From: Candidatus Hydrogenedentota bacterium
GTDB taxonomy: Bacteria > Hydrogenedentota > Hydrogenedentia > Hydrogenedentales > JAEUWI01
Direction: 5' to 3'
Length of the DNA stretch: 64,000 nucleotides
Assembly (NCBI GenBank): GCA_034669905.1
Contig: JAXMOL010000002.1
Location: forward strand, 189,248 to 253,247
The notes beneath the pieces were generated by a model, which was given only the letters and a program-made list of their open reading frames with translations, did no database searches and was not told the origin of the DNA. The position numbers and the translations under genes are program-made. Each line of letters starts with the position of its first letter. The stretch's first letter is position 1. Shown piece by piece: positions 28,860 through 42,037 of this stretch.

Positions 28860-29051
28860 GGCGGCGGACCCTCTCTGTCGCAATTCGTTGCACACACCAT
28901 TCAAACAGGTTGACATACACCCCGTCCGACAATGATTCTACCTGAGTCATTTATCGACGGCAACAGCCGGAAACTGAAACTATCCCGGCCGGCATTTCAC
29001 GTAGGCCGCCCCCGTGGAACATGACCGGTTAGCGGAGAAAAGGAGTAATCC

Positions 29052-29645
29052 ATGAGCGAATACGTCCCACGCATTCTCGCCTTCGCCGGCAGCACCCGTA
29101 GCGATTCCTACAATAAGAAGCTGGCCGCCGCCGCGGCAGAGGCCGCCCGGGCTGCCGGAGCCGACGTGACCCTCGTCGACCTTCGTGACTACCCCATGCC
29201 CTTATTTGATGAAGATCTTGAATCGGCAGAAGGGCTTCCCGAAAGTGCGGTCAAGCTACGGGAATTGTTCCTGCGTCATGACGGACTGATCATCGCCTCA
29301 CCGGAATACAACGGTTCCCTGAGCGCGGTGTTGAAAAACACCATTGACTGGCTGAGCCGTCGCCAGGGCGATGAAACACCGCTCATCTGCTTCCGCGAAA
29401 AGGTGGCCTTACTCCTCGCCGCTTCCCCCGGTGGCCTCGGCGGCCTCCGTGCCTTGCGACACCTCAACACCATCCTCCACGGGATTCAGGTCATCGTGCT
29501 CCCCGAACAGAAGGCCATTCCTGCGGCCCACAAGGTCTTCGACGACACGGGCATCGCCGATGCCAAAGTGGCGAAATCCGTCGCCGATCTCAGCACCCGG
29601 CTCGTTGAAATGACCACGCGCATCCACCAGAAAAACAACGGCTAA
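29052..29645 (+). CDS. NADPH-dependent FMN reductase
   Basis: GSTRSDSYN, SPEYNGS..LKNTIDWLSR, SPGGLGG. Confidence 0.93.
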   Translation: MSEYVPRILAFAGSTRSDSYNKKLAAAAAEAARAAGADVTLVDLRDYPMPLFDEDLESAEGLPESAVKLRELFLRHDGLIIASPEYNGSLSAVLKNTIDWLSRRQGDETPLICFREKVALLLAASPGGLGGLRALRHLNTILHGIQVIVLPEQKAIPAAHKVFDDTGIADAKVAKSVADLSTRLVEMTTRIHQKNNG

Positions 29646-29669
29646 AGTCCAACCGCCCCCTGCCGATAA
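29643..29669 (+). promoter_or_regulatory. Sigma28 (FliA) promoter P1
   Basis: TAAA-N15-GCCGATAA, exact consensus. Confidence 0.88.
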
Positions 29670-29676
29670 GTAAAGC

Positions 29677-29849
29677 ACAGGCCAAGACACGGAAGTCGCG
29701 GCGACGAATTGACACGGAGGTCAACGGAGGTGGCGAAAGAGACTAGATGAACCGTCGGGTGTCATCCCAACACCAACGCGATCGACGTTTTGTCCCACAG
29801 TCTTTCCATCCATGAGAGGCGCCATAGCACACGCTGTTGTGGCGTTTTT
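29677..29849 (+). ncRNA. Candidate sigma28-dependent sRNA-1 (CsrA hairpins; antisense to flagellin-2 initiation region)
   Basis: Promoter, GAC-ACGGAN-GTC hairpins, 26 of 29 nt complementary to 32921-32949, terminator 29819-29849. Confidence 0.75.
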
Positions 29850-29945
29850 CTATTTTATCCGCCCTTTTTCCCGCGTACGCTGCCCCACGCCCCCCGACTT
29901 TTCGCCCACGCCCCAGCCGCCCATCCAACGCCGGCACATTTCCGC

Positions 29946-29972
29946 TAAAGGTTCTCGCTCCACCGCCGATAC
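29946..29972 (+). promoter_or_regulatory. Sigma28 promoter P2
   Basis: TAAA-N15-GCCGATAC. Confidence 0.85.
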
Positions 29973-29979
29973 TCTAATC

Positions 29980-30146
29980 ACAAGGCGACGACACGGAGGT
30001 CAACGCCGGCACGACACGGACGTCATTGCTACTTATCCTGGATACATACTCACAGGGTGGCCAATCCCACCACCTGCTATTGGGAGTGCCCCAGGGTCTT
30101 ACCTCTGAAACGCGTTGCGGTCTACACTGCAACGCGTTTCAAATTT
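29980..30146 (+). ncRNA. Candidate sigma28-dependent sRNA-2 (CsrA hairpins; antisense to flagellin-3 RBS)
   Basis: Promoter, two GAC-ACGGAN-GTC hairpins, GGGTCTTACCTC pairing with GAGGTAAGATCC, 15-bp terminal hairpin 30106-30141. Confidence 0.72.
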
Positions 30147-30179
30147 ATGGGGCATACTCCACCGATCCCATATTTCTGC

Positions 30180-30206
30180 TAAAGTTTTCTGCGGCACCGC
30201 CGATAC
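30180..30206 (+). promoter_or_regulatory. Sigma28 promoter P3
   Basis: TAAA-N15-GCCGATAC. Confidence 0.85.
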
Positions 30207-30213
30207 CATCATA

Positions 30214-30342
30214 TTAAGAGACAGATTTAACGTGTTCTTCAAGGAACGCTGGGGTGTCTATCCCGCACCGTATTCCAGCCGTTAATCTCTGCTTCTTACC
30301 TCCCCTGGTTGCGTCATGGCATTGAACCATGGCGCATCTTTT
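30214..30342 (+). ncRNA. Candidate sigma28-dependent sRNA-3 (antisense to flagellin-3 RBS)
   Basis: Promoter, shared ATCCC-loop hairpin, TCTTACCTCC complementary to 33968-33977, terminator 30310-30342. Confidence 0.7.
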
Positions 30343-31114
30343 ATGTGGGCTCCACACCGTCATACAGCACTTCCTTCATGACTAGCCCCTGGGGCGGTGC
30401 GCAATGCCCCAGAAATGGCCCCCCCGACACCAACGCCTCCTGAAGAAACTCCGGACCAAAACGCCCCCGCCCTATCTCCACCAACGTGCCGGAAAGATTA
30501 CGCACCATCTTATAAAGGAATCCATTGCCAAAAAACTCGATGTGCCACAGGTTCTGGCCGTCCCGGGGGCCCACCACCGCCCCTTGATGGAGCGTCGCGG
30601 CGTAAATCGTACGCACCGTCGTCTTCATCTGACACCCCGTGCTCTGAAACCCTGCGAAGTCATGGGTCCCCTCCAGTTGAGGCAAGAGCGACCGAATAAG
30701 GTCGATATCCACCCCGTAAGGAACCTGCCAGCTATAGGGAGCACTGAAGGGGTCCATTTCCCGACTGAAGTGAAAGGTATAGCAATAGCGCTTGGCCTTC
30801 GCTGAAAATCGGGCGTTAAAATCGGCAGAAACCGCTTCCAACGCCGTAATTTGGATTTCCGGCTCTAACATGCGACACAACGCATGGCGCAACGTGGGCG
30901 GCACCGCCTTGGGCCATTCACAGGAAAAGACCTGTCCCAGGGCGTGGACCCCCGCATCGGTGCGGCCGGCCCCCTGAATGCGGATAGGCTGAGAGGCAAT
31001 CCGGCTCATAGCCGCCTCAATATCCCCTTGAACCGTCCGTTGGTCCTGTTGGGCTTGCCAGCCGGAGAAGGGCGTTCCAAGATAGCGCACAGTGCCTTTG
31101 AGTGTGGTGGTCAT
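30341..31114 (-). CDS. truA: tRNA pseudouridine(38-40) synthase
   Basis: GAGRTDAGVHA, FNARFSA, GFLYKMVR. Confidence 0.96.
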   Translation of the reverse strand: MTTTLKGTVRYLGTPFSGWQAQQDQRTVQGDIEAAMSRIASQPIRIQGAGRTDAGVHALGQVFSCEWPKAVPPTLRHALCRMLEPEIQITALEAVSADFNARFSAKAKRYCYTFHFSREMDPFSAPYSWQVPYGVDIDLIRSLLPQLEGTHDFAGFQSTGCQMKTTVRTIYAATLHQGAVVGPRDGQNLWHIEFFGNGFLYKMVRNLSGTLVEIGRGRFGPEFLQEALVSGGPFLGHCAPPQGLVMKEVLYDGVEPT

Positions 31115-31426: not shown

Positions 31427-31453
31427 TAAAGTTGTCGCTCAAGTTGCCGATAA
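31427..31453 (+). promoter_or_regulatory. Sigma28 promoter of the flagellin operon
   Basis: TAAA-N15-GCCGATAA, exact, with A/T-rich UP element. Confidence 0.9.
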
Positions 31454-31459
31454 ATACTA

Positions 31460-31898
31460 CAGGTAAGCCGAAACAGGCCTTATTCAGGACAGTTTAAAAA
31501 AGTGAAATACGGAGTCCAGGGACGGGTTTCCGCGACATCATGGAGGATGGCGCATTCAGCGCGGGGTATGCACCCGCACGACGGCCTCGAGGCCGACGAC
31601 AACAATTGAATCACGTTGATCGAATACTTCGGTATGGATGAAGGCAGAGCAGGATGCTCAACGGCTTCATCAAGAAGAAACGTCGCAGTTAACGAATTGC
31701 CTGAAGCACGGGACATGCCTCAGGGATAACGGAGACTGCTTTCGAAATCAATGGGACCAATCGATTTCACGTAGAAATCGGTTTCTGACGCACCGGACCA
31801 TGGGACGGTAGCCGCCACACCGTGGTGGGTTACCCGGGATGGGACGTCAGAGGGAGCGCAAGGATGCGCTCTACCAACCACTCACGGAGGAATACATC
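31460..31898 (+). promoter_or_regulatory. ~440-nt flagellin leader rich in CsrA-type GGA sites
   Basis: 19 GGA trinucleotides counted by eye; hairpins GAGCAGGATGCTC and GAGCGCAAGGATGCGCTC. Confidence 0.7.
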
Positions 31899-32714
31899 AT
31901 GGGACTTCGAATCAACACCAATGTGTCTGCGCTCAACACGGCGCGGGTCTTACGTAGCTCAACGCTGGACTTGAACAAGAGCCTGCAACGGCTCTCCAGC
32001 GGATTGCGTATCAACCGTGCGGCCGATGACGCCGCAGGCCTGGCCATCGCCGAGGGTTTTCGCTCGGTGGTACGCGGCACGCAGGTTGCCCAGCGCAATG
32101 CGCAGGACGGAATCAGCCTGGTGCAGACGGCGGAAGGCGCATTGAGTGAAACGACCAACATACTGCAGCGTATTCGCGAGCTCGCCGTACAGGCAGCCAA
32201 CGGAACGCAGAGTACGGCAAACCGCGTATCGCTGGATGCCGAAGTCGATCAACTGTTAGCCCAAATCGATGATATCGCGTTTGACACGGAATTCAACGGT
32301 GTCCGGGTACTCAGCGGCGGCACTGTGCTGACGCTTCAAACCGGCGCTTTCCAGGGACAAAACCTGTCGATTGTGGTGGGTGCTGCGGGTCAGAACCAGA
32401 TCGGTGTTTCGCCGGTTAACCTGCAAACCGCTGCCGGTGCCATCAGTGCACTCAGTACGGTAGACGGTGCCCTGCGCTCGGTGAACACGCTCCGGAGTAA
32501 TCTGGGTGCCTTCCAGAACCGTCTGGAGTTCACCATCAGCACGCTCGCAATCCAGGAAGAAAACTCTTCCGCGTCCGAAAGCGCTATACGAGATGCCGAC
32601 ATCGCCCAGGAAACGATTCGCTTTACGCGGAATCAGATCCTGGTAAACGCCGGTACATCGATCCTGGCCCAGGCCAACATCGTGCCACAGACGGCACTGC
32701 AGTTGCTGGGTTAA
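31899..32714 (+). CDS. fliC: Flagellin 1 (271 aa)
   Basis: MGLRINTN, RLSSGLRINRAADDAAG, QRIRELAVQ, IRDADIA. Confidence 0.97.
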   Translation: MGLRINTNVSALNTARVLRSSTLDLNKSLQRLSSGLRINRAADDAAGLAIAEGFRSVVRGTQVAQRNAQDGISLVQTAEGALSETTNILQRIRELAVQAANGTQSTANRVSLDAEVDQLLAQIDDIAFDTEFNGVRVLSGGTVLTLQTGAFQGQNLSIVVGAAGQNQIGVSPVNLQTAAGAISALSTVDGALRSVNTLRSNLGAFQNRLEFTISTLAIQEENSSASESAIRDADIAQETIRFTRNQILVNAGTSILAQANIVPQTALQLLG

Positions 32715-32942
32715 TACACGTCGACAACCAGGGCGGCCGAACCTCAAGGGATACGAGGGGCCGGAAACGGAATTTATGGCCACCGGCCGCCCTGATAATC
32801 TTCAACGTAGAGAAAGGAGAACATAGGACTGCGAGTACTTAACGAGTCGCGTCGTTGAGCATTCGGTTTTTGTCAACTATCACGGAAGAATGAATAACAA
32901 AGGGATCGGGAATCCCTTTGGCCACTCATGGAGGAAAGTACT

Positions 32943-33761
32943 ATGGGACTTCGAATCAACACCAACGTGGCGTCGCTTAACTCGGCGCGTACCCTGAGCC
33001 GCTCTACGAGCGCGCTTAACAAATCGCTGGAACGTCTCTCCAGTGGTCTCCGCATCAACCGCGCAGCCGATGACGCTGCCGGTCTGGCCATCGCCGAAGG
33101 ATTTCGGTCGGTGGTGCGGGGCACCCAGGTCGCCCAGCGCAACGCACAAGATGGGGTCAGCCTCGTGCAAACCGCGGAAGGGGCGTTGAGTGAAACCACC
33201 AACATCCTGCAGCGGGTACGCGAACTGGCCGTACAGGCCGCGAACGGAACGCAGAGCTCTGAAAACCGTGCGGCCCTGAACACCGAAGTATCGCAGCTGC
33301 TCGCACAGATCGATGATATCGCCTTCGACACCGAATTCAACGGTGTGGCGGTATTGAGCGGCAGCAGCACCCTCACCTTGCAAACCGGCGCCGAATCGGG
33401 TCAGACCCTGCAGATTGCTATCAGCAGTGGTGCGGGCCAGGCCGCCATCGGCGTGAGCACCGTCAACATTTCCACCTCGGCCGGCGCCGTCAGTGCCCTC
33501 AGCCAGGTGGACGTAGCCCTGCAGCGGGTCAATTCCCTCCGCAGTAACCTCGGTGCCATCCAGAATCGTCTCGAATTCACCATCAATACCCTGGCGATTC
33601 AGGAAGAAAACTCGGCCGCCTCAGAGAGTGCGATCCGGGATGCGGACATTGCCCGCGAAACCATTCAGTTTACGCGGAACCAGATTCTGGTCAGTGCCGG
33701 CACGTCGGTACTTGCCCAGTCCAATGTGGTTCCCCAGACGGCGTTGCAGCTTCTCGGCTAA
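32943..33761 (+). CDS. fliC: Flagellin 2 (272 aa)
   Basis: Same N- and C-terminal flagellin motifs. Confidence 0.97.
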   Translation: MGLRINTNVASLNSARTLSRSTSALNKSLERLSSGLRINRAADDAAGLAIAEGFRSVVRGTQVAQRNAQDGVSLVQTAEGALSETTNILQRVRELAVQAANGTQSSENRAALNTEVSQLLAQIDDIAFDTEFNGVAVLSGSSTLTLQTGAESGQTLQIAISSGAGQAAIGVSTVNISTSAGAVSALSQVDVALQRVNSLRSNLGAIQNRLEFTINTLAIQEENSAASESAIRDADIARETIQFTRNQILVSAGTSVLAQSNVVPQTALQLLG

Positions 33762-33980
33762 TTCGCCATCCATAGTTTAAACCGGTTGTAACGTGGTGGC
33801 TCCGGCCCTTCCTTTGGAGGGGTCGGAGCAGCACCGTAACTATACGGAAGGAGTGCATCAGTCGGCCGATTTGCCGTCCATTTACCCACCGCGGGGATAA
33901 ATAGACGATGAGAAGGCCACGAAGAACATACACCGGGTTGGTTAGGGATACCCGACCGGGTGATCTTGGAGGTAAGATCC

Positions 33981-34799
33981 ATGGGATTACGTATAAATAC
34001 GAACATCCCGGCTCTCAACACGAGCCGGGTGCTCGATCGTTCCAGCCGTGCCTTGAACCGCAGTCTGGAACGGTTGAGCAGTGGTCTCCGCATCAATCGC
34101 GCAGCCGATGATGCGGCAGGCCTCGCTATTGCCGAGGGCTTTCGCACCCAGGTGCGGGGCACCCAGGTGGCGCAACGCAATGCGCAGGATGGAATCAGTC
34201 TCGTACAGACGGCCGAAGGGGCGTTGAGCGAAACGACCAACATCCTGCAACGCATTCGAGAACTCGCGATTCAGGCCGCCAACGGAACCCAGAGTTCCGC
34301 CAACCGCCAGTCACTCAACAACGAAGTGCAGCAGCTGATTGCCCAGGTGGAAGACATCGCTTTGGACACTCGGTTTAATGGCATCAACGTGTTGAGCAGC
34401 AACCAGTCCATCACGCTCCAGACCGGAGCCAATCCGAGCCAATCCCTTCAGGTGACCATCGGCGGCGCACGCAGCACCGATCTGCGCGTAAGCGCCGTCA
34501 ATATTTCGGCCGCGGCAGGCGCTATCAATGCCATCAGCCAGGTCGATATCGCGCTGGCAAGTGTGAACACCTTACGGAGCAGTCTCGGTGCCTTTCAGAA
34601 CCGGTTAGAATTCACCATCAATACCCTGGCCATTCAGGAAGAGAATTCGGCGGCCGCCGAAAGTGCTATCCGGGATGCCGACATTGCCCGGGAAACGATT
34701 CAGTTTACACGGAATCAGATCCTCGTGAATGCCGGTGTCAGTGTATTGACCCAGGCCAACGTGACCCCCCAGGCGGCGCTCACGTTGTTGAGCACATAA
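33981..34799 (+). CDS. fliC: Flagellin 3 (272 aa)
   Basis: Same N- and C-terminal flagellin motifs. Confidence 0.97.
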   Translation: MGLRINTNIPALNTSRVLDRSSRALNRSLERLSSGLRINRAADDAAGLAIAEGFRTQVRGTQVAQRNAQDGISLVQTAEGALSETTNILQRIRELAIQAANGTQSSANRQSLNNEVQQLIAQVEDIALDTRFNGINVLSSNQSITLQTGANPSQSLQVTIGGARSTDLRVSAVNISAAAGAINAISQVDIALASVNTLRSSLGAFQNRLEFTINTLAIQEENSAAAESAIRDADIARETIQFTRNQILVNAGVSVLTQANVTPQAALTLLST

Positions 34800-34807
34800 G
34801 CAATACT

Positions 34808-34838
34808 GCGTGGTTCACGGCCCATGCCGTGAACCCGC
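34808..34838 (+). terminator. Stem-loop between flagellin 3 and flaG (attenuator or stabiliser)
   Basis: GGTTCACGGC-CCAT-GCCGTGAACC, no U tract. Confidence 0.55.
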
Positions 34839-34919
34839 AGGTGCACCCCGCGCAGCCGGTCGGACAGGCGTCTAACCGGTCGGCTTGGCCTGTGTGCACG
34901 AAGACAAGGAGACAAGCCA

Positions 34920-35240
34920 ATGGAAATCCACACCCAACCGGGCCTCGCCACCCCCGCAGAACACCGGACTCCCGCGTCGGCACCGGTCACCGAAGACCGT
35001 GAATCATCGACGTCGACGGCCCCTTCAGACCGCTTTCAGGGTGCCATCGATTCCGTCATCGTGCACCAACAGTTTCCGAGAAACACCCGCTTGCGCGTCG
35101 ATGAAGCCAGTAACCGCATCGTCGCCCAGATTCTCGATGAAAACAACGAAGTGGTCCGGCAGTTGCCCCCCCAGGAATTACTCGACATTTCTGCACGCTT
35201 CAATCGGCTCGAAGGCATCCTCTTTGATGAGCAGGGCTGA
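34920..35240 (+). CDS. flaG: Flagellar protein FlaG
   Basis: ILDENNEVVRQLPPQELL..GILFD; follows the flagellins. Confidence 0.88.
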   Translation: MEIHTQPGLATPAEHRTPASAPVTEDRESSTSTAPSDRFQGAIDSVIVHQQFPRNTRLRVDEASNRIVAQILDENNEVVRQLPPQELLDISARFNRLEGILFDEQG

Positions 35241-40547: not shown

Positions 40548-40624
40548 GGCGGTGTAGCTCAGTTGGTTAGAGCATCGGAATCATAATCCGAGTGTCCGCG
40601 GTTCGAATCCGTGCACCGCTACCA
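40548..40624 (+). tRNA. tRNA-Met (CAT), elongator type; island integration site
   Basis: GGCGGTG/CACCGCT acceptor stem, AGTTGGTTAG D loop, CAT anticodon, GTTCGAATCC, encoded CCA. Confidence 0.96.
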
Positions 40625-40742: not shown

Positions 40743-40867
40743 GAATTTACATGACATAGTAACCACTTAGTAAACAGGGCTTATTCTATTGTCATTCATT
40801 CGGATTGGTTGTCTTTTGTAGTGGTTTGCCGTACACTGGCACAAAACCAACTACAAAAGGGAACATC

Positions 40868-42037
40868 ATGGCCTCAATTCAAGAGCGCATCGACCGAAAC
40901 GGAAAGCCCAGGTACACGGCCCGAATCCGCGTGAACGGTGAGAAACCACACACGGCAACGTTCAACACATTGACGGCGGCGAAGCAATGGGCGCAACGGA
41001 CGGAATCCGATTTGCGACGGGGGCGGCATTTGCCGGACGTGGAAGCCAAGCGCCGGACCTTGGCCGATGCCATTGACCGGTATGAGGAATCGCCGTCCTT
41101 TCGAAACAAGGCACCGGGCACGATTGCATCCCAGAACAAACACCTGACCCACTGGCGCGAAAGCTTGGGACACGTGACACTTTCGCACCTTACCCCTGCC
41201 ACGATTGGCGATGAGCGCGACCGAATAGCGCGGGGTGAGAACCGGAAGGCACCAAAACGGCATCGACCACGAAAAGGCAAGGTCGAAGCCAAGGATGAAA
41301 AATGCGATGCACTCAAGCCCCGGTCTCCGGCAACCGTGGTGCGCTATTTGGCGGCCCTGTCCGCCGTACTGAGCTATACGGTAAACGAATTGCGCTGGAT
41401 AGAGACCAACCCTATCGCGCGCGTATCCAAGCCCAAGGAACCGCGCGGGCGCGTACGCATTCTGGCGGATGAAGAGCGGGAAGCCCTACTCAATGCGTGC
41501 AAGGAATCTGACAATATCCATCTTTATGACATGGTAGCGCTTGCACTGTGTACGGCAGCGCGCAAGGGTGAGTTACGGAGCCTGCAATGGCGTCACGTGG
41601 ATTTTGACCAGCGACGTATCGTACTGGATAAGACGAAGAACGGCGACCGGCGCGTGATTCCGCTTCGGGGCGAAGCCGAGCGTATCCTAAAGGCGCGTTC
41701 CAAAATTCGACGAATTGATAACCCGTATGTATTCCCAGCCCCCTTCAAGCGCGGCAAGGTACCCGGCCCCGTGGACTTTACCCAAGCATGGTATGACGCC
41801 TTAGATGACGCGAACATAGAAGACTTTCGGTTTCACGACCTACGCCACAGCGCGGCATCCTATCTGGCGATGAATGGCGCAACACTGACCGAACTGGCGG
41901 AAGTCTTGGGACACCGGACATTACAAATGGTGAGACGCTATAGCCACCTTACAGAAGCGCATACGGGCGACCTACTAGAACGCATGAATGATTCCATCTT
42001 CAAAACGGAAGTCTTGAACCATGAAAAAAAAGCGTGA
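40868..42037 (+). CDS. int: Tyrosine integrase
   Basis: TAAR, KTKNG, FHDLRH, LGH, MVRRY catalytic set. Confidence 0.96.
   Translation: MASIQERIDRNGKPRYTARIRVNGEKPHTATFNTLTAAKQWAQRTESDLRRGRHLPDVEAKRRTLADAIDRYEESPSFRNKAPGTIASQNKHLTHWRESLGHVTLSHLTPATIGDERDRIARGENRKAPKRHRPRKGKVEAKDEKCDALKPRSPATVVRYLAALSAVLSYTVNELRWIETNPIARVSKPKEPRGRVRILADEEREALLNACKESDNIHLYDMVALALCTAARKGELRSLQWRHVDFDQRRIVLDKTKNGDRRVIPLRGEAERILKARSKIRRIDNPYVFPAPFKRGKVPGPVDFTQAWYDALDDANIEDFRFHDLRHSAASYLAMNGATLTELAEVLGHRTLQMVRRYSHLTEAHTGDLLERMNDSIFKTEVLNHEKKA

Follow-up and report, generated by a model that had tools for sequence, protein, structure and literature searches.

The window, by which we mean the whole stretch of 64,000 nucleotides that was analysed, contains a tandem array of three units, s1, s2 and s3, arranged head to tail between an FMN reductase gene and the convergent truA gene. 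The sequence TAAAG-N14-GCCGATA, which we take to be the sigma28 consensus, stands at the start of every unit, and a fourth copy lies ahead of the flagellin gene fla1. The features of the array are as follows.

29643–29668, + strand: sigma28-type promoter of s1, TAAAG-N14-GCCGATA (pattern match)
29676–29850, + strand: s1, predicted sRNA (5' end inferred from the promoter)
29686–29697 and 29711–29722, + strand: two GGA hairpins of s1
29764–29768, + strand: AUCCC loop of s1
29792–29820, + strand: seed of s1 against fla2
29814–29850, + strand: terminator of s1
29946–29971, + strand: sigma28-type promoter of s2 (pattern match)
29978–30143, + strand: s2, predicted sRNA, paralog of s1 (fold z −4.5)
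29990–30001 and 30013–30024, + strand: GGA hairpins of s2
30064–30068, + strand: AUCCC loop of s2
30090–30108, + strand: seed of s2 against the fla3 Shine-Dalgarno (SD) sequence and start codon; unpaired toehold CUUACCUC
30106–30141, + strand: 3' hairpin of s2, 16 bp, with a weak U tract
30180–30205, + strand: sigma28-type promoter of s3 (pattern match)
30212–30344, + strand: s3, predicted sRNA without the twin GGA hairpins (fold z −4.2)
30259–30264, + strand: UAUCCC loop of s3
30280–30309, + strand: seed of s3
30310–30342, + strand: terminator of s3, convergent with the truA stop

The sigma28 pattern was matched 4 times in the window and never in 100 shuffles; with spacers of 14–17 it has 12 matches genome-wide, 4 of which lie at the array and the flagellin cluster. 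Three sigma70-type promoters were found against 2.6 expected, none of them near the array. The paralogs s1 and s2 have a common layout, consisting of two GAC-ACGGAN-GUC hairpins, a long stem capped by the AUCCC loop, an exposed anti-SD toehold and a 3' hairpin. The apical stem was found to be intact in all 19 s1 orthologues, with compensatory changes at three of its five pairs, and a conserved, unpaired UCCC loop is present in the units. The units are conserved while the spacers between them diverge. An SD-led open reading frame of at least 10 codons occurs in just 11 of the 105 units assembled below and none is common to the units, and no conserved small reading frame was found. A fourth paralog (L180) lies on another contig of the genome (G000:C63:15858-16075). 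Its seed fits fla2 and fla3 moderately well, and its terminator loop is a 9–10-nt complement of CAATGGGAC in the fla1 leader in 9/9 genus members.

The flagellin cluster lies beyond the array and contains the following features.

31427–31452, + strand: sigma28-type promoter, the sole match of the flagellin cluster (pattern match)
31460–31898, + strand: long leader of fla1, containing 17 GGA and three TGGGAC repeats; its final hairpin has the loop AAGGAU, not GGGA
31899–32714, + strand: fla1, flagellin (PF00669, PF00700)
32921–32949, + strand: region around the fla2 translation start, which s1 is predicted to target (rank 1 of 5,175)
32943–33761, + strand: fla2, flagellin (domain search)
33931–33962, + strand: fla3 leader hairpin with GGGAUA loop (33945–33950), predicted both to bind CsrA and to kiss the sRNA loop
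33962–33990, + strand: fla3 SD and start region, predicted target of s2 and s3 (pairing)
33981–34799, + strand: fla3, flagellin (domain search)
34920–35240, + strand: flaG (PF03646)

No sigma28-type promoter match was found before fla2 or fla3. GGGA loops were observed in the leaders of 68 of 83 downstream flagellins versus 9 of 40 first flagellins. The closest relatives of the flagellins carry the title Ca. Hydrogenedentota. The fla1 leader is about 440 nt long, and TGGGAC was counted 39 times in 40 leaders against 4.4 expected; this leader may in its own right soak up CsrA or offer sRNAs another place to land. Among 123 cluster flagellins (starts in L031-L070), 109 have GGA as codon 2, as compared with GGT in 3/4 single ones, a bias that suggests selection at the RNA level. 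Two more flagellins lie outside the cluster (G000:C15:21892-22701 and C39:65835-66629) and are ranked well by none of the four sRNAs, and the second flagellin of one relative (L049 of G030) is apparently split by a frameshift and has a degenerate SD. Elsewhere in the window, a tRNA-Met (40548–40624) is followed by an open reading frame (40805–42037) resembling, by eye, a tyrosine integrase, and the two possibly mark the start of an integrated element.

A preliminary description of this DNA proposed that s2 and s3 both complement the ribosome-binding site of fla3. The pairing of s2 nucleotides 30090–30108 with 33966–33985 was reproduced at the coordinates given, with 15 contiguous pairs (three G-U), a bulged A and 4 further pairs. 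Nucleotides 30294–30303 of s3 were likewise found to be the exact complement of 33968–33977, and its UAAUCUC is able to pair with GGGAUUA through 7 pairs, one of them G-U; the whole s3 duplex is longer than had been described, extending over 30280–30309 against about −19 to +9 of the fla3 ATG (33981). The match goes beyond what chance would give. Among 5,182 starts predicted by our own gene caller, GGAGGTAAGA lies within 22 nt of one, that of fla3, compared with 2 for GAGGTAAGA and 478 for plain GGAGG; in the 7.44 Mb genome, GGAGGTAAGA occurs 4 times, namely at fla3, within s3 and at two further places, neither of them a ribosome-binding site. A further claim was that the fla3 SD is held in a GAUCUU/AAGAUC hairpin, which pairing would remodel. 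One fold contains this hairpin, but its probability is 0.21 in a 70-nt window and another fold displaces it, and among GAGGTAAG-type flagellins the probability of an SD hairpin exceeds 0.5 in just 2 of 23. Remodelling is thus unsupported as a core feature, and opening of the SD hairpin was rejected as the mechanism for the same reason.

The genome-wide target ranking called for in that description gave a different answer for each unit. With accessibility included, s1 ranks fla2 1st of 5,175 genes through a 29-nt pairing, making this the strongest pair of the array, whereas fla3 is 14th of 5,175 for s2, a good but not unique position, and 268th of 5,175 for s3. When only the 3' module was used, fla3 was 2nd for s2 among 2,279 genes with any seed and 1st among 651 SD-covering pairings; for s3 the corresponding ranks were 149th of 2,631 and 83rd of 1,265. 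By hybrid energy alone, 8 (s2) and 5 (s3) of 5,170 other starts are as good as fla3, these energies coming from a simplified program of our own. Because the rank of fla3 for s3 is low or variable, one genome leaves the target of s3 unsettled. Plain duplex folding over candidate starts, which placed fla3 16th for s3 and 279th of 5,180 for s2, was dropped in favour of seed-and-extend with accessibility, since GC-rich false starts dominate it.

The preliminary description also named equal pairing by many unrelated genes as the outcome that would count against it. Three top competitors were traced through the genus, and two of them lose the match or always fall below fla3. The remaining one, at C9:156999, scores like fla3 for s2 in 6/9 genomes, via a stem-buried part of the seed; no Pfam family was found in its first 300 residues, and it may be a secondary target of s2. 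The comparative data thus do not show widespread equal pairing, with this one partial exception.

The seeds were compared with the flagellins of their own genomes in a set of 105 units from 47 genomes, obtained from 110 automatic candidates by removing 9 (non-units and one duplicate) and adding 4 by hand; 99 of the 105 had flagellin windows of their own, and 8 seed windows were re-cut by hand in this main set (10 overall). With the starts of the present genome serving as background for all genomes, the best own flagellin was found to beat all 5,170 background starts in 33 of the 99 units, to lie within 5 in 54 and to lie in the top 1% in 74, while 18 units rank below 250. The mean energy was −26.4 kcal/mol versus −11.4 for shuffled seeds. 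For 74 of 79 units, and for 18 of 19 genera, pairing with the own flagellin is better than the mean for those of foreign genera; the 79 units were chosen by binding to foreign flagellins, and the genera are still related, so that the p values overstate the significance. Within the genus, fla3 is the best own flagellin for 9/9 s2 and 8/8 s3 orthologues, with s2 being weak in two members (G004 and G005), where 107 and 236 background starts, respectively, are just as good. Sixteen units were added later, some of them found by a pattern that fixes the anti-SD core; 11 of these lie in the top 1%, and all 11 favour their own genome; two misses proved to be mis-cut windows, with ranks of 1 and 0 after re-cutting.

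Changes on both sides of the duplex were also observed. In G029 an extra G in the SD is accompanied by an extra C in the seed. Further two-sided changes are CAUUCA/UGAAUG in G021, AAGAUC/GAUCUU in G025 versus AAGACC/GGUCUU in G001 and G003, GGAGGCAA/UUGCCUCC in G045 and AAGCUU/GGGCUU in G030, and a compensatory change is also listed for G011. In a register table of 26 rows, from which four misaligned rows were left out (G021, one of G025 and two of G036), all 8 core positions pair in the 22 rows retained. Pairing is centred on the SD and AUG in nearly all units. Overall, conservation and compensatory change back the proposal of s2 and s3 as predicted antisense RNAs to the fla3 translation start. 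Some members fit the first flagellin of their genome best (e.g., G015, G029, G030 and G036), so that the system resembles a panel of sRNAs, each suited to one flagellin paralog, more than a simple fla1 on switch. A perfect CCUCC was seen in only 37 of 74 well-ranked seeds, many of which break the anti-SD core and lean on its flanks; the broken cores may limit off-target pairing.

A second contact, absent from the preliminary description, as were the CsrA-type hairpins and the phylum-wide family, is suggested by the loops. The two bases 5' of UCCC were found to covary with the two bases after GGGA of the target leader hairpin. When each genus contributed one unit, 34 positions held 5.3 more Watson-Crick pairs than expected (median p 0.01); this test was post hoc, the idea having arisen from the very data to which it was first applied, and p was 0.36 in 8 units added later. 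Pairing of the loop with the start-codon GGGA was rejected, as no excess was found at one unit per genus. In genus g17, the s3-type loop reads CACGCC, and its complement GGCGTG stands upstream of the last flagellin in 6/6 genomes (one mismatch in G026), unpaired in a hairpin loop in 5 of 6, as compared with 0/18 other g17 paralogs and 1/97 leaders elsewhere; this switch of loop and leader counts as one evolutionary event. For s2 itself, only 5 nt of the loop pair with the fla3 leader loop, and 6 with codons 1–3. It is likely, judging from this covariation, that the AUCCC loop kisses the GGGA hairpin of the target.

Most units carry two CsrA-consensus hairpins, s3 being without them. An alignment of 33 units shows little or no variation of ACA-N-GGA-N-GU in either 5' hairpin. 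The leader hairpin and SD of the targets are similar to the pair of CsrA sites found in B. subtilis hag and in C. jejuni flaA. CsrA is inferred to bind the twin hairpins and the leader sites. FliA is present in the genome, and fliW and csrA are adjacent and intact. To our knowledge, sRNA antagonists are generally not described in FliW-CsrA organisms. Neither Hfq (PF17209) nor ProQ (PF04352) was found in the genome, which is 96% complete. RNA-library contigs of relatives (three studies; mostly 85–95% alike) cover the array and 31468–34954, and one run contains several short contigs inside s1. The comparison drew on 8 RNA runs with just 5–10% of words, 7 of which were compared with the window; one comparison gave no cover of 29000–29421 or 30477–30898, although missing cover is no proof of anything. 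Because certain contigs already start ahead of the s1 promoter, they may derive from DNA or read-through. Being without strand, ends or level, the contigs give a weak hint of array expression.

Of 101 relatives searched at the DNA level, 31 have the array. Among genus members, s2 is present in 9/9 and s3 in 8/9, adjoining flagellins in only three, and in most genomes the units are unlinked from the flagellins. A covariance model of the promoter and twin hairpins (R1) matched 77 of 101 relatives and, at E 1e-6, 98 of 135 genomes of the phylum. In 61 genomes searched for both, R1 matched all 54 with a flagellin (weakly in G050) and none of the 7 without one, 5 of which form one family, so that the losses are not independent. 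R1 gave no match in 24 genomes of other titled groups, whose flagellins are at most 52% identical. Matches in genomes titled as other phyla were rejected as presence outside Ca. Hydrogenedentota, because several repeat places already found in the phylum searches. Five short members from g17 (L217, L218, L221, L224 and L225) have twin GGA hairpins and a terminator and no clear seed; such seedless members are possibly pure CsrA sinks. No Rfam 15 family reached the gathering score for the units, the only match in the window being a tRNA; far below threshold, RsmY matched the fla1 leader (16.6 bits) and an miRNA the s2 terminator (18.6 bits). A literature search lying largely outside subscription journals found no description of this sRNA family.

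What do these units do? With a probability of roughly 0.75, s2 and s3 are members of a phylum-wide family with promoter, terminator and 3' seeds matching particular flagellin starts, and are likely sigma28-made sRNAs that block ribosome loading on fla3, as s1 would on fla2. FliA would transcribe the units, and a single long mRNA probably carries both fla2 and fla3. As the cluster has one sigma28-type promoter, fla2 and fla3 would be separable only post-transcriptionally. The exposed anti-SD toehold, together with a kiss between the AUCCC loop and the GGGAU loop of the hairpin that lies some 30 nt ahead of the start, would provide the first docking, after which the sRNA would zip over the SD and AUG, as the covariation suggests. 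With sRNA and mRNA under the same sigma factor, synthesis of the downstream flagellins would start early and later be stopped, thereby setting filament composition. The twin CsrA-consensus hairpins would tie s1 and s2 to the FliW-CsrA flagellin sensor. An extended version of this scheme envisages a phylum-wide addressing code free of Hfq and ProQ, in which each operon flagellin has its own sigma28 sRNA whose two-part key (kissing loop and SD/AUG seed) covers precisely the target's two CsrA sites, a CsrA dimer is captured or required by the twin GGA hairpins, and the FliW-CsrA sensor decides which paralog is silenced and the order of filament building. This extension is tentative, and we would sooner expect some part of it to fail than the whole to hold.

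As the duplex lies over the SD and AUG, repression is the preferred mode of action. The same pairing could instead serve mainly to have RNase III or Y cut or degrade the polycistronic flagellin mRNA at the start of every paralog, an unlikely reading despite duplexes of up to 25–30 bp, stable hairpins 3' of fla1 and fla2, and the S. aureus precedent in which loop-loop contacts are reported as RNase III sites (PMC3861533). Pairing on the SD and AUG in nearly all units would block initiation without a nuclease, and the two outcomes are not exclusive. A shade less probable is activation, in which the sRNAs would either occupy the two CsrA sites, draw CsrA onto their own hairpins and subsequently be displaced, or open the SD hairpin. 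Both predicted contacts are indeed CsrA-type GGA sites, s1 and s2 carry two CsrA-consensus hairpins, and FlaX is reported to activate some flagellins by opening structure (10.64898/2026.08.28.747715). However, the SD itself lies under the duplex, s3 types reach the same target site without GGA hairpins, and the SD hairpin is scarce among the targets, as noted above.

Two further readings dispense with the pairing or with the RNA. If the units were CsrA-sequestering RNAs with incidental anti-SD matches, the near-invariance of ACA-N-GGA-N-GU and its agreement with the CsrA SELEX invariants (PMC7652899) would be accounted for; the preference of seeds for own-genome over foreign flagellins in nearly every genus, the s3 types without hairpins, the presence of only two sites per RNA and the lack of an Rfam CsrB/Rsm match make this improbable. 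Least credible of all is that the units are DNA relics (duplicated pieces of leader or promoter) or tiny peptide genes. Motifs are shared between units and flagellin leaders, and the units are known here as predicted RNAs, yet the matches use G-U pairs and bulges, the stems covary and the units are kept while the inter-unit spacers diverge; a peptide role is opposed by the rarity of SD-led reading frames and the absence of a common one. The best reading, predicted from sequence comparison, is therefore that of paralog-specific repressors tuning flagellin ratios. Setting the ratio and order of several flagellins from shared promoters is known in detail for few cases, of which FlaX is the closest, and the family described here would be an independent solution across a whole phylum, with sRNA-target pairs readable from sequence. 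The natural compensatory variants are ready-made test mutants, and the short modular parts suit ordinary laboratory hosts. If the proposal is true, base-pairing sRNAs are joined to the ancestral FliW-CsrA circuit where Hfq and ProQ were not found, which bears on CsrA as a general sRNA partner.

How does the family compare with known systems? The putative repressors would work like Vibrio FlaX while being unrelated to it. FlaX is reported to be a flagellar sRNA that pairs at multiple sites with the 5' UTR of a secondary flagellin (flaB), including the ribosome-binding site, thereby blocking 30S and altering filament composition (PMC11879080; 10.64898/2026.08.28.747715). Multi-site pairing with a secondary flagellin leader, including the ribosome-binding site, is here predicted and covarying. 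FlaX is described as one RNA cut from the flaA 3' UTR, sigma54-driven and ProQ-bound (PMC11879080), whereas several stand-alone sigma28-type paralogs, each fitted to a flagellin paralog, occur here with CsrA-type hairpins and with ProQ and Hfq not found. E. coli UhpU, MotR, FliX and FlgO are sigma28-dependent, and three of them pair with flagellin mRNA (PMC10578931). The present units similarly have a FliA-type promoter and an accompanying FliA gene, with FliA dependence predicted. The E. coli sRNAs are described as UTR-derived, Hfq-bound and pairing inside the fliC coding region (PMC10578931), unlike the SD and AUG pairing predicted here in a genome where PF17209 was not found; moreover, E. 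coli has one flagellin, in contrast to the several paralogs here. Stand-alone sigma28 sRNAs have been reported in Campylobacter (CjNC1/CjNC4 and CJnc170/FlmR), where the paralogs CjNC1 and CjNC4 repress without Hfq (PMC4626219, PMC11187230). These two differ in being 44 nt long and in having sigma54 gene leaders as predicted targets, and the accessible parts of the sources describe no CsrA hairpins (PMC4626219, PMC11187230). S. aureus RNAIII and the Rsa RNAs have an exposed UCCC loop that undergoes loop-loop pairing with targets and pairs with the SD (PMC3861533); here, the SD is taken by a separate 3' seed, and the predicted partner of the loop is an upstream hairpin.

The CsrA side of the family also has precedents. 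The sponges CsrB, RsmY and RsmZ carry GGA hairpins with the CsrA consensus (PMC7652899), 13–22 of them in CsrB/C (PMC6546359), and the CsrA SELEX consensus shares the ACA/GGA/GU invariants of the units (PMC7652899). McaS, according to a review, is a precedent for a base-pairing sRNA that also binds CsrA (PMC7652899), and in B. subtilis CsrA is reported to aid the pairing of the sRNA SR1 with its mRNA (PMC6546359). Like CsrB and RsmY, s1 and s2 present ACA-N-GGA-N-GU in hairpin loops, a feature absent from s3; unlike these sponges, each such unit has two GGA sites joined to a flagellin-specific seed. Overall, on the comparative data the sRNA family appears to be new and its kind known, with unusually good comparative support for its predicted targets and an architecture that is plausibly new.
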